Shown: positions 1 through 18,132 of the stretch, in pieces
How positions within the stretch are numbered: position 1 is the first letter of the stretch
How the letters are laid out: each line of letters starts with the position of its first letter
Origin: Rhizaria sp. SCN 62-66
Lineage: Eukaryota
Direction: 5' to 3'
Assembly (NCBI GenBank): GCA_001724265.1
Contig: MEDY01000123.1
Coordinates: forward strand, 56,784-76,783
DNA length: 20,000 nt
Notes under the pieces: generated by a model
What the model was told of the DNA's origin: nothing
Seen by the model: the letters and a program-made list of their open reading frames with translations, nothing else
Databases searched by the model: none
Program-made: the position numbers and the translations under genes

Positions 1-1580
1 TGCACGCGGCCGCCCTGGGGCGGGATCGACTGCGTCAGCGTCATGCCCAGCGTGTCCACCAGCTTGTTGTTGCCGGCGCCGTTGCTGCCACTGTTGTCGA
101 GCAGGCCTGCGCCGCTGGTGTTGGTGCCGACCGGGGACGCGAACGGGTCCTGGGTCGGGTCCCACGCGCTCGCCACCGCCACGGCCGCGGTATTGCCGGT
201 GGACTCGGCGTCCTTCGGTGCAGCGGGGTCCGCGGAGTAGGTGTCGTTGGCGTTGTGGGTGTCGTTGATGTCGATGTCGATGAAGTCCTCCGGAATGTCT
301 TCATCAATAGTAGCCTTGCCCGCCGCGGGCGCGGACTCGGGGCCAGCAGCGGCCGCACCGGGCTCGCCGTGCGCGACGGCGTCGTCCTCGTCGTCGTCGA
401 GCAGCGAGCGGCCCGAGGCCCCGAACGCCGACGACTGGCGCGAAGCACGGTTCTTGCCCCTGCGCCCGCCGACGCTCACAAATCCACCTGCGGCGGCCCC
501 GAAATCATCTTCCGCGTCCGCGCCTGCGTCGGCCTCTGCATCGGCCCCCGCCACGGCCTCAGAGACGGCCTCGGACCCGGAGCTGCCGGCGGCGGCGGGC
601 TTGGCGAGCGGGAGCAGCCCGCGCGAGGGGGGGAACGACGCAGCCGACGCCGCCACGACGGCAGCGCCAGAGTGGTCGTCGTCACGCGCGGTGACGCCGG
701 CGACGGCGGCCGCGAGCTCGGCGTCGTCGACGGTGGCCGCGCTGGCGTCGGGCTCGTCATGCGCGCTGCCGCTCGCAACCGCGGCCGCGTTGTCGGCGTT
801 CGCACTGCTGTTGGCGTTGGTGTTGCTGTTTGTGTTGGCGCTGGCGTTAGGGCGCGTGACCGAGACGGAGCGCGTGGTCGAGGGGCTGTGGCTGCCGGGG
901 GCCGAGGCGGAGCCGTTGGTGAGCCCCATCATCGCAATCCCGTGAACGGCCGTGATGATCTGCGTCAGTACGGGCGGCTCCTCCAGCGCGCTGGGTGCGA
1001 ACGTCTCCGCCTCGTTGCCGTTGCCGTCAGCAGCAGCAGTAGCGTCATCTGCGTTGGCACTCGCACTCGAGGGCTCGAGAAAGGAAAACTGTGGGACGAT
1101 GGCCTTGCGCTGCGTGAAGGCGTGGTTGGCGAGGTTGGCCTCGGTGACGAGCACGGACCAGGTGTGGTCGAGCTCGTACGCATCGCAGAAGTCCTTGATG
1201 AGCGAGAGCACCAGTTCGTCCATGGGCGACTCAAGCAGCCGCCGCTGCAGCTGCGTGCGTGGCGGGAACGGGCCGTTAATCGGGTCAAAGTCGGCGGTGT
1301 TAACTGCACGGTGGATCGAGGCGCGGATCTGTGCCTGTGTACAGGTGTGTGGTTGTGCGTGCAGAGGTGCGGGAGTGGGAACAGTGAGTGGAGTGGTGGC
1401 AAGAACTGACATGAACGGTTGAGAGTGAGGGGTAATAGTGACGTCAATGTCCGTCGCTAACCAAGTAGATATAAAAAGGTAATTGCCAGAAATAGCACGC
1501 ACCTTGATAGAAGACAGCACACCGAGATGGCCCAAGGATTCCACAACGAGTCCCTTGAGCTCGTCCCCGGTGTCGGCCAT
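1..1580 (-). CDS. CEP43: CEP43/FGFR1OP (FOP)-like centrosomal protein with N-terminal TOF/LisH region, 3'-partial; exons 1580-1503 and 1334->1 (runs off window)
   Basis: The spliced translation MADTGDELKGLVVESLGHLGVLSSIK|AQIRASIHRAV...LVLSLIKDFCDAYELDHTWSVLVTEA matches the FOP/FOR20/OFD1 N-terminal pattern (ELxxLVxxxLExxGVLxxIKAQLRAxV plus LisH). Phase-0 intron 1502-1335 (GTGCGT...ACACAG). Exon 2 stays open to the window edge, so it is absent from the ORF track, and has an Ala/Asp-rich low-complexity tail. The length favours FOP over the short FOR20. Confidence 0.75.
   Translation of the reverse strand, partial: MADTGDELKGLVVESLGHLGVLSSIKVRAISGNYLFISTWLATDIDVTITPHSQPFMSVLATTPLTVPTPAPLHAQPHTCTQAQIRASIHRAVNTADFDPINGPFPPRTQLQRRLLESPMDELVLSLIKDFCDAYELDHTWSVLVTEANLANHAFTQRKAIVPQFSFLEPSSASANADDATAAADGNGNEAETFAPSALEEPPVLTQIITAVHGIAMMGLTNGSASAPGSHSPSTTRSVSVTRPNASANTNSNTNANSSANADNAAAVASGSAHDEPDASAATVDDAELAAAVAGVTARDDDHSGAAVVAASAASFPPSRGLLPLAKPAAAGSSGSEAVSEAVAGADAEADAGADAEDDFGAAAGGFVSVGGRRGKNRASRQSSAFGASGRSLLDDDEDDAVAHGEPGAAAAGPESAPAAGKATIDEDIPEDFIDIDINDTHNANDTYSADPAAPKDAESTGNTAAVAVASAWDPTQDPFASPVGTNTSGAGLLDNSGSNGAGNNKLVDTLGMTLTQSIPPQGGRV
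1335..1502 (-). other. Spliceosomal intron (168 nt) in the CEP43-like gene
   Basis: AAG|GTGCGT...TACACAG|GCA; splicing joins SSIK to AQIRAS in frame. Confidence 0.85.
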
Positions 1581-2093: not shown

Positions 2094-3327
2094 ATGCCTG
2101 TTGATCCCAACGCTCCTCGCAAGGCCAAGACGACCAAGGGCCAGCGCGTGCTGGACAACCGCGCGCCGAAGCTGACGGAGAACGAGAAGAAGTGCATCTT
2201 CGTCCGCGGCCAGACGTGCTCGGACCTCATCTCCAAGTCCATGACGGACCTCTGCGCGCTCAAGAAGCCTGAGTCGAAGATGCTGTCGAACAAGAACCCG
2301 ATCCGCCCCTTCGAGGACGCGACTTCGCTCGAGTTCCTGACGCGCGTCAACGACTCGTCGCTCTTCTGCTTCGGCTCCCACTCCAAGAAGCGCCCGCACT
2401 CGCTCGTCTTCGGCCGCACTTTCGACTTCCAGATCCTGGACATGCTCGAGTTCCAGATCGACCCCTCGACGTTCAAGACGATGCAGGACCTGTCGAAGGA
2501 CCGCGAGACGACGTCGCGCATCGGCGCCAAGCCGCTCTTCGTCTTCATCGGCGACCAGTTCACGCACGCCGAGGACATGCGCACCTTCCGCTCGCTGCTG
2601 CTCGACATGTTCCACGGCATCGACGTCTCCAAGACCAACCTTGCCGGGCTCGACCGCGTGATCATCATCACCGCCACGGTCAACCCCTCGGACATCACCA
2701 AGAAGGTCGTCTACTTCCGCCACTACAACGTACGTCACTACGCTTTGCTTTCTTTCGAGAGTGTTTGCACGTGTTTAATCGGATATATCATGTCATTGAT
2801 ATATTAACATGCCAAAAATTCATATAACGTACGACAACATTATCATTTCTCACATCTTGCTCCTTGAACTCTAATATTTTGTTACGCTTGCATCTACACT
2901 TGCACAGGTGCTGAAGAAGAAGTCCGGCACGCGCTTCCCCCGCGTCGAGCTGGAGGAGGTGGGCCCGCGCATGGACCTGACCTTCAACCGCTCCTCGTCG
3001 GGCTCGCTGGAGATCCGCAAGGAGGCGCTGCGCGTGGGCAAGGGCGCCACGATGGCCAAGCGCAAGAACGTCGAGATTGGCCAGATGGGCCAGCTGCTCG
3101 GCCGCGTCCACATGCAGAAGCAGAACCTGGACGAGATCGCGCTGGCCAAGCTCAAGGGTCTGGGTAAGCGCGTCAACACGGGGGCCAAGCGCACGCTGCC
3201 GCGCGACGCGCCCGAGCCCGGCGCGCAGCTCTCGGACGACTGGAAGGTCGTCGCCGGCGACGCGCAGAGCAAGAAGCGCTCGCGCATGCTGCCCGCCGCA
3301 TACGCCAACTCTGTCATCTCGGAGTAA
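2094..3327 (+). CDS. RPF2: Ribosome production factor 2 (Brix domain); exons 2094-2729 and 2908-3327, about 351 aa, stop TAA
   Basis: Diagnostic motifs: KAKTTKGQRVLDNRAPKLTENEK, NPIRPFEDATSLEFL, SLFCFGSHSKKRPHSLVFGRTFDFQILDMLE, FRHYN|VLKKKSGTRFPRVELEEVGPRMDL, GRVHMQKQNLDEIALAKLKGL. Confidence 0.96.
2730..2907 (+). other. Spliceosomal intron (178 nt) in RPF2
   Basis: AAC|GTACGT...CTAAT...TGCACAG|GTG, AT-rich, phase 0, restores the Brix C-terminal motif. Confidence 0.92.
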
Positions 3328-4087: not shown

Positions 4088-6259
4088 ATGTTGCACCCTG
4101 CAGGCTCGGCCGTTGCCTCCAGTCCGGTCCCGGAGCTGTCCCCGTCGTCGTCCTCGCACAGCCACGCTGACCCCGACGTGGCCGCCGCCGCCGCCGCGAA
4201 CGCTGACGCCGTCGCTGCGAGCACGGTGATCCCCGCGTTGCCCGCGTCGGTGTCGGAGACGACTGAGACGGCTGCCGTGAAGCTTGTGCACAGTCTATCG
4301 CTGTCCCGCCACAACAGCAACGCGTACGCGCACAGCCACAGCCACGGCCCGAGCCACACGTCGTCAAGCGCCAATCTGAGCAGCAACGGCAACTACGCTG
4401 CCGACGCTATTGGCGCCAGCGGTGGTGTGCACAGCGCCTACGCCCACGCTAACGCTGGCGTTGGCGGCCCTATTGCTGAAGCGTACGGCGGCAACGACAC
4501 GGACGCCGAGTCCACTGACGGCCACACGGTCACCGTCACCTCGGACGACCCCAGTCTCGCTGCGGCCGATGCCGCCGACAGCGCGGACGGGGCCGGTCTG
4601 AGCGGCGAGCACAAGCCGATGCCGCCGGACTTAGCATCGCACGTTGTGCTGCTCAAGGTGCTGTACTTTCTGCAGGGCATGTCCGCGGCGTCGTGGGGCC
4701 GCTTTGGCACGATTTACTACCTCTCGCGCGGGCTCACGCGGTTCGAGATCGGCATCATTGAGGGGCTCATCCCGTCGATCACGATGTTCGCGTCGCCGAT
4801 CTGGGGCATCGTTGCCGACAAGCTGCACTCGCGCAAGAAGGTCGCGCTCTTCACGCAGTCAGTCTCGGTCTGCATCCTCTGTCTGCTCGCGTTTCCCGCG
4901 CTGGCGAGCGGCTTCGAGTCGATCCTGGCCATCTCGATGCTCATGGCCGCATTCGTGTCCTCGGGCATCCTCGACGCGCACACGCTCGACGTGTTGGGCA
5001 AGGATTACTTCTACGCCTACGGGCCGATCCGCATGTGGACCTCAATCTCGTGGGGCATCGGCGCGCTTTTCCTGGGCTTCCTCACAGACTCCTTCTCAGT
5101 CTACTCCATCTTTGTCGTCTATGCTATCCTCGCCACCACCTCGATCGTGGCCACATCGCGCGTTGTGCCCGAGCAGACGCACAACGAGGCGCGCCGCGCC
5201 GTGGGGCCGCCACCGCAGCTCTCGGCGCTTTTCCGGGCACTCACGCGCCCGCGCATGCTCTTCTTCCTGTTCTAGATCGCGCTCTTTGGCGCCGGCATGG
5301 CCGTTGTTGAGCGGCTGCTCTTCATCTACCTGCGCGACGACCTGGGCGCCAGCAACTTCCTCTGCGGGCTCACCGTTACCGTCACGGTTATCTTCGAGCT
5401 GCCTATCTTCATGTACGCCGACCAGCTGCTCAAGCTCTTCGGGCACCATGGCATGTTCTTGATCGCCATGGTCGCGCACACGGTCCGCGTTTTCCTCTAC
5501 ACGCTGCTCACGCGCGAAGCCGTCTACGCGATCCTGCCGATCGAGATCACGCACGGCATTACCTTCGCGTGTATGTGGACCGCGGCAGTCGAGTACGCCA
5601 AGATGGGCGTGCCCGAGGAGTGGTCCTCAGCCGCGCAGTCGATCCTCGCCGCCACGCTCGGCTGCGTCGGCGCGGGCGTCGGCTCCATTCTTGGCGGATA
5701 CGTCATGGACCGCTACGGCGCCATCGCGCTCTACACGGGCACCGGCATCATCGGGCTCTGCACCATCGCCATGCACCTCGCCTTCCACCTCGTCACCAAG
5801 ATCATCGACGAGGGCGCCGCCGACGGCCGCCACAGCGGCGGCGCGGGCGCGGGCGAGCTCGACGACGGCGTCACACTCGACGGCATCGACGTTACGATAA
5901 GCGGCAGCGCCAGCCCCGCTGCCGCCGACGGGGTGGGCGTGTCCAGGGCCGCCGCATTCGCGGTCGCCGAGACCATTGACGGCGGGGGCAGCGGCGGCGG
6001 TGTCGGCGCTGGCGGCGGGGTCCGCGAGCAGGTGCCTGTCGGACTGGCCGCGGCACCCGCTGCTAGCGGCTACAGCAAGTACAACGACGACAACGACGAC
6101 GACGGCGACGACGCGGCGGCGCGGTACAATGCACAGCACCAACAGCAGCGGCAACAGCAACAGCAGCAGCAGCAGCGGCAGCGGCGCACTGCGGGCGGCG
6201 CCGTGGAGATGGGCAGAGTGGGTGGGTACCGCAGCTAGTACGTGGCCGGAAGCAAGTGA
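4088..6259 (+). CDS. MFS transporter (MFSD6/MFS_1_like) with long low-complexity termini; single frame with in-frame TAG at 5273-5275 and 6236-6238, ending at TGA 6257-6259 if TAG is sense (about 723 aa)
   Basis: ORFs 4088-5275 and 5297-6238 are in the same frame and form the N- and C-halves of a 12-TM MFS. Motifs: LKVLYFLQG, GLTRFEIGII, SPIWGIVADK, YGPIRMWTSISWG, FELPIFMYADQLLKLFG, EITHGITFACMWTAAVEY, GAGVGSILGGYVMDRYG. GC3-rich codon usage continues across the TAG. Confidence 0.85.
6134..6181 (+). repeat. CAG/CAA poly-glutamine tract in the MFS C-terminal tail
   Basis: cag cac caa cag cag cgg caa cag caa cag cag cag cag cag cgg cag. Confidence 0.85.
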
Positions 6260-6610: not shown

Positions 6611-9459
6611 TCAGAGTTTTTCGCTTTCAAGACGGACAAAATTAATGCTCGACGGATAACATCCTGTGCACGAAGCGTAACGTTCTGCGCACGAGCGAAC
6701 CGCATCGAATTGCGTAGCTAAAATCGAGTCAAATGACCTATAATCTTGTGGGGATGCATCATGAGCGTACCGCGCGGTTCCAACAGGTACTGCACCAGGG
6801 ATCGTGCTTGCGTTCATCGGATAAAACACGATAAAGAAAAGACTAGAAAGAGTGTTCGCGCGGGGAAACACGGTGAATGGTGACACAAGCACGGTACCGG
6901 GTGGGTACACCGTGTCCCTAGCCGGTGCCTTGTGCTCGCCAAACACAGTGTCCTTTAGGATACGGCCGAGAAACGCACCATCTTCGCAATGGTTGCAAAT
7001 TACCGCGAATGGAGTTGTTGAACGACTTGTTTCTGACGTTCGGATACATGTATGTAGCGATGTGCCAAGCGCTCGATTTGATGCTGCATTCCGGAAGTGG
7101 GCAGCGTGACAAGGAAACTTTACATCGTCAAGGCGAATCCGCAGATGAAAGTGAAAAGTGCCCGCGTGGCTCTGCAAATTGATACTCATTGTGACATCGC
7201 GATAAACAAGGCAGAGTGTGCGCGCATGAGCAATAATGTGATTGCGCGCCCTCCTCTGGAAAGTCTTCAATGCATACTCCGTCATTGCATCTTCAGAGCG
7301 CGCTATCAGATCGGCAAGCGGGAGAGTTGTTCGTGAAAATCTTTGCGCCTTGAGACTTTGCACAAGATGAGATTCAAAAACGCGCTGCCATAGATTTTGC
7401 CAAAAGTAGTTCACAAATGCCAAGCTCTCAGCATCAAACATCTGGAACGCGCGCGATTGCTGAAAAACATCCGGAAACGAAAAGGTGCATCGGGCATGCA
7501 CAGCACGGCCGCAACTGCTCTTCGTTTCGCATGGATCGTTTTTCGCAGCGGCGCTATCAGAAAGTTCAACGAATCGTCCAATTACAAAGACTGTCGTGCG
7601 CTTCGAGGAGTCACAGAGCCACAAAGACGATGAAACAGTGCTCGCAGTTGCAGGCAAAGTCACAGTCTCAGTAACACCACGTGTTTCAGCTCCGCTGTGA
7701 GTCTGAACAGTGTTATCGTGTTGCCCGGTCGAAGGTGAAGATAGTTCAAAGGTCACGTTAACGCGACCGAACGTGAAACATTCGTTCTCACGTTTATACT
7801 GCACAGCAGCATCAATTTGCGGCAATGACGAAGATGAAACCGCTGCTTCGTCAGCCTGCGATGGCGATGATGAATGCACACTTGTGACGATCCTGGTGAA
7901 AGTGTTTACGCTCGAGTTCGCGTTGTTCATCCCAGCCTCAGACTCGCTGTTCAAGTCATCATCGGTGTAAAACTCAATCAACTCCTGAACAACAGTGTCA
8001 CGCGCCCCAATCTTGTCATAGCTGGCTGCAAGGTTATCGTCCATGCTCGCTTCGACTTCACACACAAGAGCACAATCACATGGGACGGCAGCGACAATGC
8101 TTGCATCAGAAACCCCCTCGACAGCGGTGTGAGGTTGATCCTCCGCAGCGACAGAAATCATTGGTGACTTCCCACATCCGCAGCCGCGGCGGACACGGCA
8201 CTCAAACGTCACCCCGCATAGCTCGGCAACACCCAGCTCAACCGGCGCTGCGCTAGGAACCAGAGCTGAAAGCGGCACGTCGCCCTCGCAAACAACCTCG
8301 CGAGGGGCAAGTGCAGCTGCCGCGTCCGCAAGCGCGCTCTCAAGAGCGGCGCGCGCGGCCGTCCAGCGCTCTCGACCCACAGCAAGCGGGGGGTCGACGC
8401 GCGCGGGCCAGCCAGGGCTCGCGGCGGCAAGTGCGGAGAGCTCGGGGATGGTGGGCGCGGCGACCGAGGCCGCGATCGCGGCGAGTTCCTTGCGCGCGGC
8501 CGCAAGGCCGGTCTGCTCGCGGGCCGCAGACCGGGAGGCGTACGCGGAGGCACGAGAGAGAAGCGCGGCGAGCGGGCCCATGGCGTCTGCGGCGAGCGTT
8601 TCCGCGCGGACCTGTGTCAATGCGAGCAGGGCGGTTGAGTCACGCTGCAACTGCGCCATGGACTCCGTTTGGTCCTTGATAAAAGTTAAAAACAAATTGT
8701 GAAAAAGAAGCGCAAGATATGAGTCAGTCTTCAGGATTAATCTCCATTTCGATAAACTATAACTGTCGATTTTAAGCTATGTCGAGACACGTACGTTGAT
8801 TTTGCGTTCGAAGTTGTCGAGTTGCGGCGGCAGCTGCGCGGCACGGCTCTTGATCTCAGCATCAACGTCGACAATCATGCGGCATTTGTGGCCGAGGTGC
8901 TACGCGTTGAGTACTGCGCACTGGTGGCAAACAGGGGTGATGCAATCGCTGCACCAGTTAAGGAAGAGCACTGGGGTCGCGTGCGAGTGGCAATACTGAA
9001 TAAAGCATCACGGAAACACATGTCATGTAAGCGCGGATTGGAAACTCTTCAGGTTATTCATAGGTTGGGGTAAACAGCATTTCGGAATACGTTGCGAGAC
9101 GTACGTTGATGTCGTCGGAGGCAATTGCCGTAGTGTTGGGCTGGCTAGCAGCAATCACAGCTGCTGCAGCAGGAGCAACTGGCACTGTCGGTGTTGGTGT
9201 TGTGGTATCAGAGACAGGCGCATGGGTCTGACTCTCAGCCTGAGAGGTGTAATTAATTACATTACAGCCAGATACATTGAGTATTATGGGATGAGAGATT
9301 AGCCTGGAAATGTGATGAATGCAGTACAGACCAGAGATCTGGGGCGAAGCGAAGAGGCATACGTACAGCAAAGCAAGCTGCGCAAATTCGACCGTTCGAT
9401 GCGGCGCCCGTCATATGCGCACCACAAAACAAACACTTCTTGACCAGAACTGTCGACAT
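6611..9459 (-). CDS. Zn-finger + B-box + coiled-coil (TRIM-like) protein with unknown C-terminal region; exons 9459-9367, 9239-9105, 8995-8795 and 8674-6611; in-frame TAG at 8902-8900; about 830 aa; stop TGA
   Basis: Exon 1 has CLFC...CAAC. Exon 3 reads YCHSHATPVLFLNWCSDCITPVCHQCAVLNA*HLGHKC, the B-box2 pattern C-x2-H...C-x2-C-x4-C-x2-C-x6-H-x2-H. A helical/coiled-coil segment follows (EIKSRAAQLPPQLDNFERKIN|DQTESMAQLQRDS). Three phase-0 introns all start GTACGT. Confidence 0.78.
8675..8794 (-). other. Intron 3 (120 nt) of the B-box gene
   Basis: ATCAAC|GTACGT...TTTTTAACTTTTATCAAG|GAC, AT-rich, phase 0, joins the 6611-8695 ORF frame. Confidence 0.78.
8996..9104 (-). other. Intron 2 (109 nt) of the B-box gene
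   Basis: ATCAAC|GTACGT...CTTTATTCAG|TAT TGC CAC, phase 0. Confidence 0.82.
9240..9366 (-). other. Intron 1 (127 nt) of the B-box gene
   Basis: GCT|GTACGT...CTCTCAG|GCT, phase 0. Confidence 0.75.
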
Positions 9460-10143: not shown

Positions 10144-12514
10144 TCAAATATCGTCATCACTGTCCGCAGCAACTGCGTCCGCGCGTACGCTCGCGGCGCG
10201 CGCGGCCCTCTCTTCGATTGCACGCAACGCGGCGTCCAGCGCAGCGTCGCTGTCAACGGGAGGCTTAGCTTTCTGATCAAGAGGGGCGTCGTCGTCGTCG
10301 CTTGCATCGTTGTGATCATCGCCATGCACCTCGTTGCCGTTGCCATCGCCAGAGGCACGCTCGGCCTGACTCACCGAGTCGGTGGGGGCGCTGGAGCTGT
10401 CGGGGTGCTGTGTTGCACTCGCACGCGCAGTGCTGATGTCGGACTTGCTGTCTTGCTGCGATTCAAGCCAGTCACCAAACGCCTTTAGCCGCTGCTCCTC
10501 CCCCTCGTTCTCGTTCTCGACCTTGTAGTTCGTCTTGCCGTCGAAATACACACAGCGCAGCCGGCGCAGCGGCTTCGCTACAACGCCATGACTCGCACCA
10601 GTAGCACTGCCCTCGGTCGAGTTTGCCGTCGCGCGCACGTCTGTGTTAGCGTCATCTGTGAAAATAATGTCGTCATTCGTGTTTCCAGTGATCGTCGACA
10701 CCACCTTATTGTTCAGCAGACGAATGCACGCCGCAGCCGCGTGTCCCGTGCGGAACTGGATCACGACGGGGCCCTCGAAGTTGCCCGGAAACACGGTGAG
10801 CTTGGCCACCGCGCCGCACTTGGCCTCGACCAGCGCCCGCACGCGCGCGCGCACGCCCTCGTAGTACGCCGCGGCGTCGCCGCTCGCCACTGCGACGTCA
10901 GGCGAGTACGCGTTCAGCAGCGAAATAATGCGGGGGCCCGGGCCAGCACTGCCAGCGCCGCCGGCGCCAGCACCGGCCGCACCGCCCTCGGCGGCGCTGC
11001 CGCTGCTGTCGGTGTTGTACGTCGTCGCGTCGTCGCCGCCGCCGCCCCACGACAGCGCCTGTGCCTGTGCGCGCGCGGCCAGCGACTTCTGCTGCCGCTT
11101 CATCACGAGCGCGGGCGCTCCGGAAGCGTTGTTCGCAGTGGCGTCAGTCACCGTTGCAGAGCCGGCGGGGCGGGCCCGCTTCGCTGCGCTGTCAATGTCG
11201 CCGTCCGCGCTCGCGCTCGCAGCGGTCCCCGTGTGTGCGTGGTCGTTGGCATCAACGGGGACGGACTTAGCGCTGAACTGCGCCCTGCACACAGCGACGG
11301 TGTATCCGGGCGCAAACTCGCGGCCGTCGAGAAAGCTCACCGCAAGGTCGACCGACTCGGCCTTGGCGTAAAAGACGAGCGCCTCGCCCTTAAGCTGGCC
11401 GGCTCGCTCGTGGCCGGCGCGGTGGCGGTAGAGCTTGATGCGCGGCAGCCCCAGCTCGTCAACCTTAAGCACGCCCGCGCGCGCCGCAAAGTCGGCCACG
11501 GCTTCGGGCATCAGCTCGTCGCCGTCCTCGCCCACCACCGGCAGCCCGGTGATGAAGACCGTCGTCTTGCCCTGTGTCGCCGACAGCAGCACTTTGTTCT
11601 GTTCGTTGTGGTTGCCTGCATCCGCGTTGCTGTCGCTGTTGCTCGGGCCGGCGCCGGCAGTCTGCGCTGTGCGCTTGCGGAGGCGCGACTCGCGGTTGCG
11701 CTCGCGCTTGGCGAGCTGCTCGGGGGTGAGGTCGGCGTCGGCCACACCGCGGCCGGCGGCGACGGCGGGCATGCCACCTGCACCGCCGCCGCTGGCGCCG
11801 CTAGAAGAGACTGCAATCGACGCATCTGTCGTCGCATTGGGCATGCTGGAAGAGCCGGACGCCTGTGCAGCAGCAGTGTTCGAAGCGCTAGGGCCAGCAG
11901 CGTGGAGTGCAACTGGGTCAACAGCTGCAGCTGGGGCAGGAGCAGTGATTTGGGGGTGTGAGCTGTACGGCTTCCAACCTGCATAAAGCAACGAATCAGA
12001 AGTGAGTTCAAAAATATATGCAAGTGTTAGTCGTATAAAATGAAAAATAATGTGCAAAACAGTTGGTTTTCTTCTTATTAGACTTGACATGAGGGAAGAA
12101 GTGCGAAGTAGTTGCGTCAGTATCGAGTTGGTTGTTGTAAGACGTACCGACAACAGCCTTTGTCCAAACCAGAGTCTCATCTCCAATCATCCCCGCGGCG
12201 CGGAATCCCTTTATGTCGTCGCGTGCAAACGGTCCCTGCTTAATGCGCATGGAATCCATGTAAAACCAGGGCTCTGCACCGACGGCAGACAGCGCGCTAA
12301 GCATGGGCGTCAGGTCTGCGATCGTGGTGAGAGCGGCCCAGTCTGCAAGTCCGTTGCGCCAGCAGTACGTCTCTTGAGTGACCTCGCCAGACGCAAAGAA
12401 CCACAGAAGATCTGTGCCGCTAACGGGGCCGCGCTGTGTCTTGCGCGAGTCGAAGAAGTGCCACACGATGGCCTCGGCGGGCACAGTTGCAACCGAGGGT
12501 ATCTCCGCGGACAT
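10144..12514 (-). CDS. HTATSF1: U2 snRNP-associated splicing factor Tat-SF1/CUS2 homolog with two N-terminal GYF_2 domains; exons 12514-12148 and 11978-10144, about 733 aa, stop TGA
   Basis: RRM1: TTVFITGLP...AGVLKVDELGLPRIKLYR...GQLKGEALVFYAKAESVDLAVSFLDG...RAQF. UHM: IISLLNAYSP...CGAVAKLTVF...EGPVVIQF...AAACIRLLNN, then YFDGKTNY and EEQRLKAFGDWLE. GYF_2: WHFFD...QRGPVS...ETYCWRNGLADW and WFYMD...QGPF...DETLVWTKAVV|GWKP. Confidence 0.9.
11979..12147 (-). other. Spliceosomal intron (169 nt) in the Tat-SF1 gene
   Basis: GTC G|GTACGT...TTTATGCAG|GT TGG, phase 1, completes the GYF_2 motif VW....GWKP. Confidence 0.9.
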
Positions 12515-12828: not shown

Positions 12829-15200
12829 TCACCACTGCGCTTGCTGCACCGCGTTACTGACAACAGTGCGCTGCAGCGCAGAGCGTTGCGTACTCTGCAT
12901 CTGCACCTGCGAATTAGGCTTATCACAATCACCGCGGCTACCACACATTGCTGCACTCTTAGTCGTCCGGTCAATACCGTGGTTATCGCGCGCGCGCCGT
13001 TGTGTGGCCGACCTCTTGACGCTGCTACGCGACTGTGTCTGCGCAGTATCAGAGGTGCGACTATTTGTGACAGTAGAGTATGAATGCGGCATCAGCGCGT
13101 CCACAGGCAGCCCAAGCGCCCTCGCAACAGCCTCCGCGGCGCCGCCCTCGGCCCTGACGCTCTGAGCGCCGGTCTTCGCAGACTCGGCGGCGACGGAACC
13201 AGTCTTGGCACCTATGCCCCGCGCACTAGCAGCAGCCCTGCTCGTGTGACTGAAGCCACCGTTTGCGGCGTTGATGCTGTGGGCGCGCGAGGCCGCTGGA
13301 AACGCGGCGCCGCCGCGGGCAGACGACGGCCTCCGCGCGCGCGTCTGCATCAGAGCGGTGTGCAGCCCGTCAGCGATGCCGGACTGACTGTGGCCAAGAT
13401 TGTGACCATGAGAGTGAGCAGCGGCTGCAGTGCCGACAGACTGGCTAAAAGCAAACCCGTCAGTGTGGCCGTGGAGATGGGCGTTGGTGGGGACGCTCAC
13501 GCCCCCAACGCTCCACCCTTCCTCTGCAGCAAACTGGCCGTGATCGTGGCCGCGACCGTGGGCAAACGCGGCGCTCATCGACGCGAAACCGTGACCGAGA
13601 GCTGCAGTGCGGCCGCCCATTGGCGCAGACAGAGTCGTCGACAGCGGCACAGACAGCGGAGACCAGGCCTCCGTCGCCGCACTCGTCTCGCTCGCCTCGT
13701 CCTTGCCCATGTGTCCCATGTGGCCCCGGTGCGAGCGACCGTGCGCGCCTGCACCGGAGTGACCGTGGGCCGCGTCGGCAGCGACTTGCGCGGCGAGCGC
13801 GCGCTCCGAGGCCGTGGGGCGCGCGCCGCCACGCGCGGACCGGGCGAGGTCGAAGCTGCGGCCGTTGAGCCGGCCCAGCGCATGTGCGGCCGCGGCGAGG
13901 CGGGCCGGAACGACGACGCCGCCGCCGAGTCGAGGGTGTGCAGCGTGCGCGCAAACTGCTGCTGCTCGTGCTGTTGCTTCTGCTGCCCGCACTCGCTTGA
14001 GCTAGCGGCCAAGGCGGTGCTGTGAAAACTGCGACTTGTCGCAATGCTGCTGTTGTTGACAATGGTGCTAAGGGCTGCAGAAAGCTGGCCTGTCGCGGAC
14101 AGTTGGGCCGCGGCTGCGGCCAGCGGCGCCTGCGGCCTCCACAGCAGCGGCGGCTCGGTCTGGCCCGTGACGAGGCTTAACTTCGAGACGGCGACACCGG
14201 TGCCCGCGTTGCTGACCTGCGCAAACGCGACGGACCGCGCGGAGGTCCAGTAGTCCTTATGTCCTGCGCCGGTGCCACTCTGGTCAGCACCCCCCGCCCC
14301 CGCGAGCGCGCAGAGCCCCACAGTGGAGGCAGCTTGCTGTGCGAAAGCGGCCGCGGCGGCGCGTTTGGCGGCCTTGTCGGCGGCCTCCGCGGCGGCACGT
14401 GCACGCGCGGCCTGCGCGGCGGCGGCGGCGGGCGTGGCGAGGCGCAGCGGCGCGCCGGCGGCAAGCGCGGGCACGGCGGGCCCGTCGGCCGTGCGCGGCG
14501 GCGGGTCGCGGTACGGCTCCGCGGCCGAGGACAGCAGCGGCGCGACGTAGGCCCCCGCCAGCGTCCGCGTGCGGTCCAGCGGCGCGCACGTCGCGGGACG
14601 GTGGTGCCGGCGCATGCCCTGCGCGCGCGCGGCGGCGTGCACAGCAGCGGGGCTCACAGCGGCGGCGTCCGTGGATAGGGGGTCTGCGACTGTGAGGGGT
14701 GGGCGGGAGAGGCGCACGGCTGCCTCGATGCGCTCGCGCTCGGTCTTGGGCCCGAAGCTCAGCGAGAGCTGCATCTCCATCTCGCGGATGCGCGGGCGGA
14801 AGTCCGGGACGGCGACCGGCGGCACCCAAGGGTCCGCTGCTGCAGTGACGTGCGCGGGTTGTGCAGACGAGGATGTCGAGGACGATAGAGACGTCGAGGC
14901 GACGAACGCAGTCGCAGGGCGCGCGGGTCCAAAAGCCGACTTACCCAGCGCGGATGCAACGTGAAAGTTCATCGGGTGCGGGTGCTGTGGGGCATCCACA
15001 GGAGCGTCTTCGGCTGCGGCAGCGGTAGAGGCGGAGGCGAGCTGCTCAATGCGCGTTGCCGCGGAGGGGGCGACGTCGTGGAGCCACTTCTCGACGCGTG
15101 CATAGCTCCGCAACGCCAAAGCATCACGCGAAGGGGAAGAACATGTCGCAGACCGAGCTGTACCGCGGCCCGGGTAGGCCGGAGGACTGGAGGGGAGCAT
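12829..15200 (-). CDS. Hypothetical Ala/His-rich protein (about 790 aa) with an apparent 1-nt frame switch near 13896
   Basis: Coding-like GC3 bias lies in the 13575-15269 frame down to about 13896 and then moves to the 12829-13992 frame. Likely start is ATG 15200, downstream of TTCACAG. Stop is TGA 12831-12829. No family recognised. Confidence 0.6.
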
Positions 15201-15748
15201 CCGAGAGACGACGGAAAAGGGTGCGAGAAACGGCTGTGAAGTGAGGAGAAACATAAAATCAGGGTTCAATAGGTGTGTGTGAGCCGTTTACAGGATTCGA
15301 TCAGTCCCATCCATGATGAGAACATCAAGTAATTGTACGTGTCTCGCGAACAAGCGAAGTCAATATGGCTGAAGAGCGCTGTAATCGATTGAAGGTGGGA
15401 TGATGGACGGAGACTGGATCAAGAGAGATGTCGTCGAAGATGCTCAAAAACAGTGCTGGAAAACAGCGTTCCCATCGGAGGATAGACATGTAGTAAAGCA
15501 CTAGAAGGAATCAGTCATAGGAATAATATAATCTATTTTTCACATTACGGGAAAGTGTCTATGTCTCGCACAGTACTTCATCTCAAGATCACCGCACCGC
15601 CGCGCAGTTGACCGTTTACGATTCACTTGTGGTCATCGAACTTGTTCTTTGGATATCACGTCTAAACAGTCACAACAATGAACATCTATGCACTATATTT
15701 CACTTACAAGTTAATTTCTTTGCATTCTCGTGTTTTTAATTTCATAGG

Positions 15749-18132
15749 ATGTCCAAGGCGTCTCTCCTGAGTGCGTTTATGGACGACGCCGAGAGCGACG
15801 AAGAGCAGTCGCAGCAGCAGTCACAGCAGCTCTCCGGCGTCCCTACGGTCAAGCCTGAGGGTGTCACATCGAACTATGATACTAACATTGGCCCAACTAT
15901 TGCCCCAGCGTTCTTCAGTGGTACGATCGGTCCGGCTGCAGCTCCTACAGCTTCGTCCTCCTCTTGTGCCAACGGTCACAACACGAGCGCGAACGTTTCG
16001 GCCGTGACCGCGATCATCGAGAGCCCCGAGTTCGTGGCCCTGCTGGCGGACCTTGACGCTGCCGATGCTGCTGACGCCGAGGCTGCGGCCGCGCTGGCTG
16101 CCGCAGAGATGGCCAAGCTCGACTCCCGTATCCCGGGCCTCCACGGCAGCAACGCCAATAAAGACTCCTCGGACTCGAGCTCGAGCAGTGACTCCGACTC
16201 CGACTCCAGCAGTGACAGCAGCGACAGTGACGACGACAAGCCGCACCGGATCCCGCTCCCGCCCGCGACCGCCTCTGCGGCGGCGGCCTCGGCGCTGGTC
16301 TCCCGCGCCAACGCCCAGCTGCGCCGGCTCGACGATGAGCTGGCCGTGGTGCACCGCGCGCTCCAGGCCGCCTTGCGCCCGCTGCACCCCGAGCTGGAGG
16401 CGCTGGTGACAGAGCCCGACGCGTTCGCGCGCACGGTCATTGCGCTGCTCCGCCGCGACCTCGCCGCCGTCGCCAACAGCGCCGCTGCAATTACCAGCAG
16501 TGACAGCGGCGTGAAGTCAGATGGCGCAAGTGCCGAGGCCGAGGCCGCTGCGGAGGCACTGGCGCGCGCGGCCGCGAACCCGGCGATCTCTGGCACGGGC
16601 GCTGGCAAGCTGCAGACTGAGCTCGAGACCTTCCTTCCGTCTTCGGTCGCGCTCGTCGTCGCCGTTACCGCGGCCGCCTCGGCCTCCACCTCGGCGCTCC
16701 TGCAGAACAACAGCGGCGGCACTGACGGCGCCGTGAACGGTGCAGCGGCGCCCGGCGGCAAGGTGGCCGCCGCGTCCTCGTTGTCTCCGCTGCCCGCGTT
16801 TAACCTTGCACTCTCGCTGGCGACCGCGGCGGCGACGCGCACGCGGCTGCAGGCGCTGCTGTCTTCGCGCCTGGCCGCCGTGGCGCCCAACCTCACGGCA
16901 CTGCTGGGCGGGCCGCTGGCAGCGTCGTTGGTTGCGCTTACGGGCTCGGTCCGCGCCCTCGCGCTGGTGCCGTCGTGCAACATCCAGGTGCTCGGCGCCC
17001 GCCGCGGCGCGCTCGTGGGCACCTCCGCGGCCAGCGCCGACCTGCACACCGGTGTCATCGGCGGCGCCGCGCTGCTCGAGGGCGTGCCGAAGCAGGTGTA
17101 CCGGCGCGCGGTGCGGCAAGTTGCCGCCAAAACTGCGCTCGCGGCGCGCGTGGACGCTGCGGGGACGTGCGCCAGCGGTGACAGGGGCCGCGAGATGGCC
17201 GAGGACATCCGCGCGCGCGTGCGCCGCTGGCTGGCGCCGCCAGAGACGCGCAACATCAAGGCACTGCCGCGGCCGAACGAGGGGCCCAAGAAGAAGCGCG
17301 GCGGGCGCCGCTTCCGCAAGCAGAAGGAACGGACTCGGCAAACCACGCTCGCGAAACAAAAGAACCGACTCGCGTTCGGCGGCAGCGAGGTCGTGGACGA
17401 CTTCACCGGCGAGGGCATGGGCATGGTCGGCGCCGGCGGCGACGGCCTTGTCATTAAGGGGCTAGGCGGCGACGCGGGCGGCCAGCGCGTGCAGGACCAG
17501 CTATCGAAGAAGATGAAGGCCAGGTACGTGTGTTTAATGGCTAAAACGCAAAGATACAGTTGCGACCGGCGGTATACTATCTATTTTATATTTCTTCATG
17601 TTGGTCAATTGTTTGTTTACTCATTACTCTTTCGCTAGCTCACTTTCCCTTCGTTTTATCATTTCGTCATTGTTTACATGCACTAAACTACAGGTTGGCT
17701 GGTGGCAAGCAGCTGACTGGCGCGGCGGCCGTCTTTGGCACTGTCACTGGCACTGGCGGTGGCGCCAGCGCACTGCACGGCCAGGGCAACGCCGCCGCTG
17801 CCGCTGAGGTCGAGGAGGGGCCGACCTTCGTCATCCTCAAGGCTGCGCCAAGCACTGCCAACAACAACGCCTCCTCCGCGAGCGGCACTGCAATCACTGC
17901 AAGCGCTGCTGGTGCTAACAGGGACTACTTCGGTGTGGGCGTGAGCAGCAGCGTCGGCGCCGGCGTGCACGGGTCCTCCGACCACGGCCAGGGTCACAGC
18001 CAGGGCCAGGTCAAGCGCGCCGCCGGCGAGGCCGCCGCGGGGGCGGGCGCGGAGACGGAGGCCGAGGCGCGGGCGGCCGAGATGGCCGCGAAGCGCGCGC
18101 GCATCCTTGCGAATTCGAGCCTGTTCAAGTGA
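15749..18132 (+). CDS. PRPF31: U4/U6.U5 tri-snRNP protein Prp31; exons 15749-17523 and 17694-18132, about 737 aa, stop TGA
   Basis: NOSIC-like HPELEALV. Nop domain VAPNLTALLG...LALVPSCNIQVLGA...HTGVI...RRAVRQVAAKTALAARVD. NLS/C-terminus PPETRNIKALPRPNEGPKKKRGGRRFRKQKE...KQKNRLAFG. Confidence 0.93.
17524..17693 (+). other. Spliceosomal intron (170 nt) in PRP31
   Basis: AG|GTACGT...CACTAAACTACAG|G, AT-rich, phase 2, joins the 17560-18132 ORF frame. Confidence 0.88.

Follow-up and report, generated by a model that had tools for sequence, protein, structure and literature searches.

In-frame TAG codons at conserved glutamate columns of a B-box gene and a neighbouring transporter gene point to UAG as a likely sense codon in an intron-bearing protist

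Outside ciliates the nuclear genetic code seldom changes, UAA nearly always changes along with UAG, and glutamine is the commonest reassignment of a stop codon. Reassignments of UAG alone that keep both UAA and UGA as stops are documented in the sections of the sources drawn on here (PMC5304391, PMC11687900). In the rhizarian exLh, UAG means leucine and UAA and UGA are the stops (Panek et al. 2017, PMC5304391); UAG is abundant there, with 384 occurrences in 71 genes and conserved leucine at 82 of 86 hyperconserved sites (PMC5304391). Glutamine is the meaning of UAG, with UAA as a stop, in Iotanema spirale, where UAG accounts for ~8% of glutamine codons, in Protocruzia tuzeti and in some phyllopharyngean ciliates (PMC5304391, PMC11687900). 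Glutamate is recorded for UAG in the ciliate Oligohymenophorea sp. PL0344, together with UAA as lysine, and for both UAR codons in peritrich ciliates and Blastocrithidia (PMC11687900, PMC12153298). Within the literature searched, UAG alone has been reassigned to leucine, glutamine or serine, and to glutamate only alongside a reassignment of UAA (PMC11687900, in the sections covered). The same literature, mostly from outside the subscription journals, contains no described code with UAG as glutamate and both UAA and UGA as stops, and no code variant for Sainouroidea or Cercozoa.

The locus reported here lies in a window of 20 kb (the whole stretch of DNA that was analysed), which, judged from its proteins, appears to come from a GC-rich, intron-bearing protist with rhizarians as its nearest named relatives. 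The best named match of its RPF2 is the rhizarian Plasmodiophora (48%), and one relative of its MFS transporter (P0005, 53%) is labelled Lygus hesperus, a bug whose transcriptome contains sequences of the rhizarian exLh and of a trypanosomatid (PMC5304391). A trypanosomatid origin was considered, as Blastocrithidia reads UAG as glutamate and contaminates the same transcriptome; it was rejected on account of genes on both strands, introns that are homology-supported or clear in RPF2, PRP31 and the B-box gene, and the lack of any trypanosomatid among the named RPF2 matches. Five introns were seen in the window, of 109-175 nt and all with a GTACGT donor; introns of this length, GC-rich sequence and genes on both strands are unlike ciliate or trypanosomatid genomes. 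The reading that best accommodates the evidence set out below is that TAG (UAG) likely specifies an amino acid in this organism, most probably glutamate, while TGA and TAA stay terminators. More tentatively, and with a little less than even confidence, this could be an undescribed nuclear code, with UAG as glutamate and UAA and UGA both as stops, at an early stage of low usage in which TAG makes up ~1% of glutamate codons. The features on which the argument depends are collected in Table 1.

Table 1. Positions in the window of the two genes with in-frame TAG codons and of their parts
Feature	Positions	Strand	Remarks
MFS_1_like transporter gene	4088..6235	+	Pfam MFS_1_like profile; 33 homologues
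Second in-frame TAG	5273..5275	+	Conserved Glu column, transmembrane segment of the MFS gene
TAG at apparent end of MFS frame	6236..6243	+	G of TAG starts GTACGTG, the organism's splice-donor consensus
TGA terminator of B-box gene	6611..6613	-	
Exon 4	6614..8674	-	687 codons; coiled coil, conserved middle, C-terminal cyclophilin-like domain
Cyclophilin-like C-terminal part	6614..7429	-	272 aa; AF2 pLDDT 83.5, pTM 0.84
Intron 3	8675..8794	-	120 nt, GC 0.33, donor GTACGT, acceptor AAG; from a 40-residue BLASTP gap and composition
Exon 3	8795..8995	-	201 nt, phase 0-0; B-box zinc finger and start of coiled coil
In-frame TAG in B-box	8900..8902	-	Residue 32 of exon 3, between ligands C26 and H33 (ligands 6 and 7)
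Intron 2	8996..9104	-	109 nt, donor GTACGT, acceptor TTCAG; putative, from splice signals, no homologue across
Putative exon 2	9105..9239	-	45 codons, Thr/Pro/Ala-rich linker; from splice sites and open frame only
Putative intron 1	9240..9366	-	127 nt, donor GTACGT
Putative exon 1	9367..9459	-	ATG 9459-9457, 31 codons, zinc-ribbon-like CxxC-x13-CxxC

The third exon of the B-box gene is preceded by TTCAG and followed by GTACGT, and its translation reads YCHSHATPVLFLNWCSDCITPVCHQCAVLNA, then the TAG, then HLGHKCRMIVDV and onwards. The original prediction had proposed this stretch as a real exon encoding a B-box with all eight putative zinc ligands intact. Its peptide, the position of the TAG and the splice borders check out, chance does not account for the exon, and relatives back both of its borders and the 120-nt intron beyond it: when the read-through frame is compared by BLASTP with P0159, P0161 and P0168, the gap at that intron is exactly 40 residues, and the orthologous exon ORF P0184, 47-49% identical to exon 3, has the same borders. 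Intron 3 would stay in frame if retained and holds another TAG (8779-8777).

B-box ligands follow the consensus C-x2-H-x7-9-C-x2-C/D-x4-C-x2-C-x3-6-H-x2-4-H, which exon 3 fits with a complete set of eight (C2-x2-H5-x9-C15-x2-C18-x4-C23-x2-C26-x6-H33-x2-H36). W14, C15, C18, C23, C26, H33 and H36 are invariant in a seven-sequence alignment, and the pattern C-x2-C-x4-C-x2-C-x6-H-x2-H is common to seven relatives among 68 sequence matches, a set that includes the window's own P0157. With X in place of the TAG, a comparison suggested by the original prediction, the peptide matches Pfam zf-B_box (PF00643) at E=0.007 and 16.9 bits; with glutamate there, the match improves to E=0.0018 and 18.8 bits, the corresponding scores for Q, L and Y being 18.0, 17.0 and 15.7 bits. 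All of these lie under the Pfam gathering cut-off of 24.1 bits, a threshold passed by the orthologues P0213 (26.1 bits) and P0161 (24.2) and missed by P0184 (21.8) and P0159 (19.4). An AF2 model of the exon (pLDDT 86.6) has a helix at residues 41-66, and its top Foldseek matches in the PDB are the B-box2/coiled-coil regions of TRIM72, KAP1 and TRIM5 (probability 0.98-1.00), with E-values that are weak, as is to be expected of 67 residues (best 0.025, none at E<=0.001). Additionally, a PDB sequence-profile search matched the TRIM3 B-box/coiled-coil (E=0.0042) as well as PML; a word-index protein search with exon 3 alone gave no candidates. As judged from the Pfam profile, the PDB profile and the fold of the model, exon 3 is a B-box at the level of the family, with predicted binding of two zinc ions; the domain assignment has held for the family, and the window's own copy falls short of the Pfam threshold.

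If the TAG is a sense codon, the best reading of the gene is an intact one of four exons and ~830 aa, whose product would run from a zinc-ribbon-like CxxC...CxxC motif through a linker, the B-box, a coiled coil and a conserved middle to a cyclophilin-like domain. Putative exon 1 matches Pfam DZR_2 (double zinc ribbon) at E=4.5e-4 and 20.4 bits, short of the 27-bit threshold, and putative exon 2 has no Pfam match. The conserved middle, a region of 400 aa in exon 4, is without a Pfam family. With the C-terminal 272 aa as query, Foldseek matched 85 PDB entries at E<=0.001; the best is human cyclophilin A (6.4e-5, target-normalised TM ~0.5, rmsd ~7 A), with the Cyp domain of macaque TRIMCyp also among them. 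Identity to cyclophilin A is ~15%, the domain has no Pfam Pro_isomerase match (nor any Pfam match at E<=5), and a PDB sequence-profile search with its alignment turned up nothing beyond designed repeat proteins, whose E-values of 0.033 or more carry no meaning; the cyclophilin likeness comes from the fold search with a predicted structure and not from sequence. The gene resembles TRIM/RBCC proteins in that a B-box2-type zinc finger with a TRIM72/KAP1/TRIM5-like fold runs straight into a long helix, and it resembles the primate TRIM5-cyclophilin A fusions (TRIMCyp) in carrying a cyclophilin fold at its C-terminus. It differs from these proteins in the absence of a RING match, with only a sub-threshold zinc ribbon in exon 1, in a conserved middle without counterpart in TRIMs, and in a C-terminal domain that Pfam Pro_isomerase does not match; the shared architecture is presumably convergent.

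The TAG of exon 3 directly precedes H33, and the observation that this position ahead of HxxH is usually polar is borne out by the relatives that have the B-box, six of which carry glutamate in the column, one tyrosine and none glutamine. A true stop here had been expected to discard more than 700 codons; 35+687 codons indeed remain open 3' of the TAG, in a region of ~50% GC, with the last exon open to its TGA, and termination at this site is implausible. The TAG is probably a sense codon, most likely for glutamate, as far as the alignment indicates, and would be a normal, if seldom used, codon for the glutamate conserved ahead of the HxxH zinc ligands.

Removal of the TAG from the mRNA would offer another way out, either through splicing of the 15-nt GTACTCAACGCGTAG, which starts with GT and ends with AG and which the original prediction had listed as a refuting option, or through skipping of exon 3, whose symmetrical 0-0 phase would preserve the frame. 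The micro-intron is contradicted by the relatives and by the organism's other introns: loss of five residues would leave C-x1-H in place of the C-x6-H spacing kept in seven of seven relatives, and a donor of GTACTC and a length of 15 nt do not resemble the introns seen in the window, so this candidate was rejected. Skipping, which may occur, would forfeit a conserved domain. Neither event accounts for a TAG in an intron-free part of another gene, and mRNA removal is very unlikely as an explanation.

That second TAG lies 3.6 kb away, in the MFS transporter gene. The Pfam MFS_1_like match runs straight across it, covering profile positions 3-218 before and 223-371 (of 373) after, and the surrounding region is free of introns. 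Among 31 homologues covering the column, 24 carry glutamate, two glutamine and five other residues, all five at <=32% identity; in the 20 aligned homologues the count is 18 glutamate and two glutamine. Against six relatives, the part ahead of the TAG is 37-56% identical and the part past it 49-64%, with GC3 at 0.89 and 0.90, respectively. This in-frame TAG at a conserved glutamate column, a decisive piece of context, was missing from the original prediction. With it, what would have been an oddity of one gene becomes a probable property of the organism's code.

The second TAG also bears on the quality of the sequence. Sequencing or assembly error in the T of each TAG, with GAG as the true codon, would restore the residue of the relatives by a single substitution per site, and a possible frame switch in a low-complexity gene (12829-15287) could betray an imperfect assembly. 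Such error would not, however, be confined to glutamate codons or yield TAG every time; apart from the TAG itself, no sequence motif is common to the two sites, and the five homology-checked genes are without a frameshift. A miscall, another refuting option of the original prediction, is unlikely because a TAG of the same kind occurs in a second gene; moreover, the public protein set records both of the ORF fragments into which the MFS TAG divides the frame (P0003, P0011), each on six contigs. These six contigs could be re-assemblies from the same reads. Error at both sites is rated as highly improbable.

Only marginally less improbable is that both TAGs are real premature stops, that is, nonsense alleles or young pseudogenes of the sequenced strain. 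In this GC3-rich coding sequence, random nonsense changes would themselves favour TAG: under a mutational null, 67.6% of random single-base nonsense changes in this codon usage yield TAG, and 16.8% are GAG to TAG. The GC3 of the B-box gene (0.44-0.74, against 0.79-0.96 in its neighbours) could in addition hint at relaxed selection. Against this, of the roughly eight genes in 20 kb such stops would disable two, neither of which shows another lesion: both are without a frameshift and without TAA or TGA over 716 and 754 codons, respectively, all eight zinc ligands of the B-box are intact, and the transporter is no less conserved past its TAG than ahead of it. Furthermore, both TAGs fall on glutamate columns, and under the null a pair of random nonsense changes would both be GAG to TAG with a probability of ~0.03, low but not negligible.

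Across a census of 3635 well-supported codons, TAG occurs in frame twice and TAA and TGA not at all, against 133 GAG and 30 GAA, and 93 codons are CAG; given this rarity beside GAG and GAA, the reassignment need not be complete. The case for reassignment consists of these two codons, both at glutamate columns. Four terminators are clear, namely the TGA of the B-box gene, of an RRM-like gene and of PRP31, and the TAA of RPF2, which stands where the homologue P0038 ends; no unambiguous TAG is among them.

A complication arises where the MFS frame appears to end, since a TAG there (6236-6238) would fit a codon still acting as a stop. It may be a terminator, a sense codon or a donor site; the next in-frame stop, TGA 6257-6259, lies six codons on, and because of this backup and the overlap with the donor consensus the TAG is perhaps no terminator at all. 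A double meaning of TAG, as terminator at gene ends and as amino acid or inefficiently suppressed stop inside genes, is unlikely. The scarcity of internal TAG is what would be expected early in a reassignment, and parallels to such a system would be found in Blastocrithidia and some ciliates, whose codes depend on context. On the other side stand the ambiguity of the lone apparent TAG terminator, with its overlap and backup, and the four of four unambiguous terminators that are TGA or TAA. UAG-CAR-YYA is a stimulatory 3' context for readthrough, and it is absent at both internal TAGs, which are followed by CAC CTC in the B-box and by ATC GCG in the transporter; programmed readthrough of this kind was rejected as a candidate. 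Ambiguous codes are mentioned in the consulted sections of PMC11687900 and PMC12153298.

Which residue a sense TAG would specify is addressed by the joint posterior over the two sites, derived from hmmbuild emissions, which gives glutamate 0.75, aspartate 0.04, lysine 0.04 and glutamine 0.03. Leucine is found in neither column, and the rhizarian exLh meaning was rejected for that reason. That TAG is a sense codon for glutamine or another residue in place of glutamate is a decidedly unlikely alternative, of which glutamine is the form with arguments in its favour. It stands at the MFS column in P0004 and P0006, two of the four closest relatives; it scores only 0.8 bit below glutamate against zf-B_box; CAG, a common codon here, is one step from TAG; and codes with UAG as glutamine and UAA as a stop are documented in Iotanema, Protocruzia and phyllopharyngean ciliates (PMC5304391, PMC11687900). 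Its absence from the B-box column, the predominance of glutamate in the MFS column and the posterior nevertheless weigh against it.

Under the favoured reading, with TAG as a sense codon for glutamate, decoding would be carried out by a dedicated tRNA-Glu with the anticodon CUA, and eRF1 would no longer recognise UAG, as has been proposed or found where UAG is reassigned elsewhere. The window itself contains no tRNA gene, no eRF1 gene and no Rfam match. If the reading is true, a tRNA-Glu(CUA) and eRF1 changes should be findable, the known codes would gain a variant in which UAG means glutamate and UAA and UGA still terminate, and the very low usage of TAG would show an early stage of codon capture. 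There are also consequences for annotation. Gene callers that apply the standard code split or truncate the genes of this organism: in the public protein set, the MFS transporter is present as two 'proteins' (P0003 and P0011) and the B-box gene is present minus its B-box (P0157, P0210). Such splitting and truncation would make the domain content and orthology of the genome systematically wrong wherever TAG occurs.

Compared with described systems, the window would share with PL0344, the peritrichs and Blastocrithidia the reading of UAG as glutamate, and differs in that UAA is reassigned there too, according to the sections of the sources used, whereas here TAA ends RPF2 and does not occur in frame. 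With Iotanema, Protocruzia and the phyllopharyngean ciliates it would have in common a reassignment confined to UAG and a low usage of the codon, its TAG columns holding glutamate and not glutamine. The likeness to exLh would be that a protist other than a ciliate has reassigned UAG alone in its nuclear genome and terminates at UAA and UGA; the difference is that TAG is rare in the window (two of 3635 codons) and falls both times on glutamate columns, whereas the UAG of exLh is abundant and falls on leucine. The window may nonetheless come from a lineage related to exLh, a lead from sequence comparison and not a result, and if the organism does stand near exLh, a single codon would have passed to different amino acids in two adjacent lineages.

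The exon at the centre of the original prediction is confirmed as real and, at the family level, as B-box in nature by Pfam, relatives, exon borders, an intron-sized gap in homologues, PDB profile comparison and predicted fold. Its peptide, its flanks (...TTCAG upstream, GTACGT downstream) and its in-frame TAG (residue 32, immediately N-terminal to H33) were reproduced exactly, all eight Cys/His ligands (C2, H5, C15, C18, C23, C26, H33 and H36) are intact in a spacing that we take to be the B-box cross-brace pattern, and the large open last exon expected downstream is present. The Pfam zf-B_box profile matches exon 3 at 16.9 bits with X at the TAG and at 18.8 bits with Glu, in both cases below the cut-off of 24.1 bits; the profile check proposed for the X-substituted peptide therefore gives a match below threshold, and the B-box assignment holds at the family level. 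Among four relatives scanned with Pfam, P0213 and P0161 reach the cut-off, and P0184 and P0159 miss it.

Searched with HMMER (E<=0.001), the read-through frame 9007..6611 with TAG as X matches 68 proteins, of which P0157 and P0210 are fragments from the window itself, and the pattern C-x2-C-x4-C-x2-C-x6-H-x2-H is present in seven relatives (P0159, P0161, P0167, P0168, P0170, P0184 and P0213). P0184, a 79-residue ORF of a relative's DNA, covers exon 3 from first to last codon at 47-49% identity and continues into 'VRV', the translated GTACGTG donor, at exon 3's own 3' border. Furthermore, aligning this frame by BLASTP to three long relatives (P0159, P0161 and P0168) requires a 40-residue gap, the exact length of the 120-nt intron 3, whose 40 codons are missing from the homologues' protein; in the alignment with P0170, the gap is broken into pieces. 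This intron is in frame, so that 9007..6611 forms one open frame if TAG is read; a second TAG of that stretch (8777-8779, minus strand) lies inside it. Against the PDB, the family profile retrieves TRIM3 (E=0.0042) and PML (E=0.0067). The AlphaFold model of exon 3 (seven-sequence alignment, pLDDT 86.6) has two short hairpins, a helix turn and a long helix from residue 41, and its nearest PDB folds are the B-box2/coiled-coil regions of TRIM72, KAP1 and TRIM5 (probability ~1, best E weak at 0.025, with no match at E<=0.001).

The TAG position, originally described as usually polar (e.g. E/K/Q), is occupied by Glu in six of the seven relatives and by Tyr in the other. Splicing out of the 15-nt GTACTCAACGCGTAG, the escape offered for the interrupted frame, is contradicted by the C-x6-H spacing, which it would destroy and which is identical in all seven; moreover, the observed introns are 109-175 nt long and every one begins with GTACGT.

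The window is eukaryotic, with genes on both strands, GC-rich exons (GC3 0.79-0.96 in most genes) and AT-richer introns (GC 0.33-0.44). The donor sites of all five introns (2730, 8794, 9104, 9366 and 17524) read GTACGT, three of them AACGTACGT, and this hexamer is enriched across the window, with 16 occurrences where 6.5 are expected (at least 16 in 0 of 200 shuffles). The GC3 of the B-box gene is 0.44-0.74 by part (0.54 in the last exon), far below its neighbours, and its last exon is still open throughout. In the Ala/His/Ser-rich low-complexity gene, the long ORFs 13575..15287 and 12829..14001 overlap in different frames, both GC3-rich, which may reflect a switch of frame, a short intron or an indel introduced in assembly.

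Features of the window and parts of the B-box gene
Feature	Position	Strand	Remarks
FOP/LisH-like gene	3..1580	-	
RPF2	2094..3324	+	one intron
MFS_1_like transporter gene	4088..6235	+	in-frame TAG 5273-5275
B-box gene	9459..6611	-	
Exon 1, putative	9459..9367	-	splice signals and open frame; CxxC-x13-CxxC, zinc-ribbon-like
Exon 2, putative	9239..9105	-	splice signals and open frame; Thr/Pro/Ala linker
Exon 3	8995..8795	-	in-frame TAG 8902-8900
Intron 3	8794..8675	-	120 nt
Last exon	8674..6614	-	687 open codons; terminator TGA 6613-6611
Conserved middle region	7430-8674	-	~400 aa
C-terminal domain	6614-7429	-	272 aa
RRM-like gene	~10147..11799	-	
Low-complexity gene	~12829..15287	-	
PRP31	15749..18129	+	one intron
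Last gene			runs off window end

A second in-frame TAG divides the MFS gene into two adjacent ORFs in the same frame, and the public protein set lists the gene as two proteins, P0003 and P0011, split at this codon. Of the 373 positions of the Pfam profile MFS_1_like, 3-218 align upstream of the TAG and 223-371 downstream. Of 35 database matches, 31 were counted once the window's own halves and two that fall short of the column had been set aside: 24 carry Glu at the TAG, two (P0004 and P0006) carry Gln, and the remaining five, which have other residues, are distant (<=32% identity), two of them under prokaryotic (MAG) names. A MAFFT alignment of 20 relatives has Glu in 18 rows of the column and Gln in two. 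Upstream of the TAG, the MFS frame is 37-56% identical to six relatives, with a GC3 of 0.89; downstream, the figures are 49-64% and 0.90, which indicates equal constraint on both halves. The apparent end of the frame is a further TAG (6236-6238), followed by six codons and a TGA ending at 6259; as its G starts GTACGTG, the donor consensus of all five introns identified, this TAG could serve as terminator, encode Glu or belong to a splice site, and the reassignment may accordingly be complete or partial.

Across 3635 homology-supported or clearly coding codons, the census found two in-frame TAG, no TAA and no TGA. Clear terminators are TGA in the B-box gene, the RRM-like gene and PRP31, and TAA in RPF2, where it coincides with the end of the 79%-identical homologue. 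The joint posterior at the two TAG columns, computed from hmmbuild emission probabilities with the window's rows left out, favours Glu (0.75) over Asp (0.04), Lys (0.04) and Gln (0.03). That both codons are TAG is weak evidence by itself, since random single-base nonsense changes in the window's codon usage give TAG in 67.6% of cases (GAG to TAG in 16.8%); under the same null model, both would fall at Glu with a chance of ~0.03. A stronger argument against true stops is that they would inactivate two of about eight genes within 20 kb, neither of which bears any other lesion or loses conservation downstream. The miscall allowed for at the outset is less readily reconciled with the public protein set, which lists the split MFS fragments and the RPF2 exon on six contigs each; this argues against a one-off error, with the contigs possibly not independent. 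Altogether, the read-through interpretation is supported, and extended by the MFS gene: on the evidence of these two codons, TAG is probably translated here, most likely as Glu, the B-box TAG being one of two visible instances. That this represents an undescribed genetic code variant is put forward more tentatively, as a serious possibility.

With TAG read, the predicted B-box product has ~830 aa (31+45+67+687), comprising a zinc-ribbon-like start (exon 1 scores 20.4 bits against Pfam DZR_2, below cut-off), linker, B-box, coiled coil, conserved middle region and C-terminal domain; no RING domain was detected ahead of the B-box. The middle region shares a VRRGCGCG motif with relatives including P0158, P0159 and P0161 and matched no Pfam family. 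The C-terminal model (37-sequence alignment, pLDDT 83.5, pTM 0.84) matches a cyclophilin-like fold: Foldseek returns 85 PDB matches at E<=0.001, cyclophilins led by human cyclophilin A (6.4e-5) and including the macaque TRIMCyp domain, at TM ~0.5 on target, rmsd ~7 A and ~15% identity, with no Pfam cyclophilin match. The architecture resembles that of primate TRIMCyp (B-box, coiled coil and cyclophilin-like domain), presumably by convergence. TRIM proteins self-associate through their B-box and coiled coil and bind a ligand with the C-terminal domain; by analogy, the corresponding parts may do the same here.

As to the host, RPF2 has Plasmodiophora brassicae as its best named match (48%; unnamed matches up to 79%), and P0005, an MFS relative at 53%, bears the label Lygus hesperus, a bug in whose transcriptome sequences from both the rhizarian exLh and a Blastocrithidia have been reported (PMC5304391). 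Rhizarian affinity is a lead only. A trypanosomatid origin was rejected on account of the introns, the genes on both strands and the absence of trypanosomatids among the named RPF2 matches.

Mechanistically, TAG would be read as Glu while TGA and TAA still terminate. Judging from other reassignments, decoding could involve a tRNA-Glu whose CUA anticodon differs by a single base from the GAG-reading CUC and, by the reasoning of PMC5304391, is the sole anticodon reading UAG but not UAA, together with an eRF1 that has lost recognition of UAG; the 20-kb window gave no tRNA gene and no Rfam match. In the literature searched, whose incomplete coverage does not prove absence, no code was found that combines UAG=Glu with UAA and UGA as stops. 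In the available text of PMC11687900, UAG=Glu is noted only alongside UAA=Lys (ciliate PL0344) or as UAR=Glu in peritrichs, and UAR=Glu is also described for Blastocrithidia (PMC12153298). Other known UAG codes assign Gln in Iotanema (PMC5304391) and Protocruzia, Leu and Gln in phyllopharyngean ciliates, and Ser in Scotinosphaera (PMC11687900), and the rhizarian exLh reads UAG as Leu, with 384 in-frame UAG in 71 genes that terminate at UAA (56) or UGA (15) (PMC5304391).
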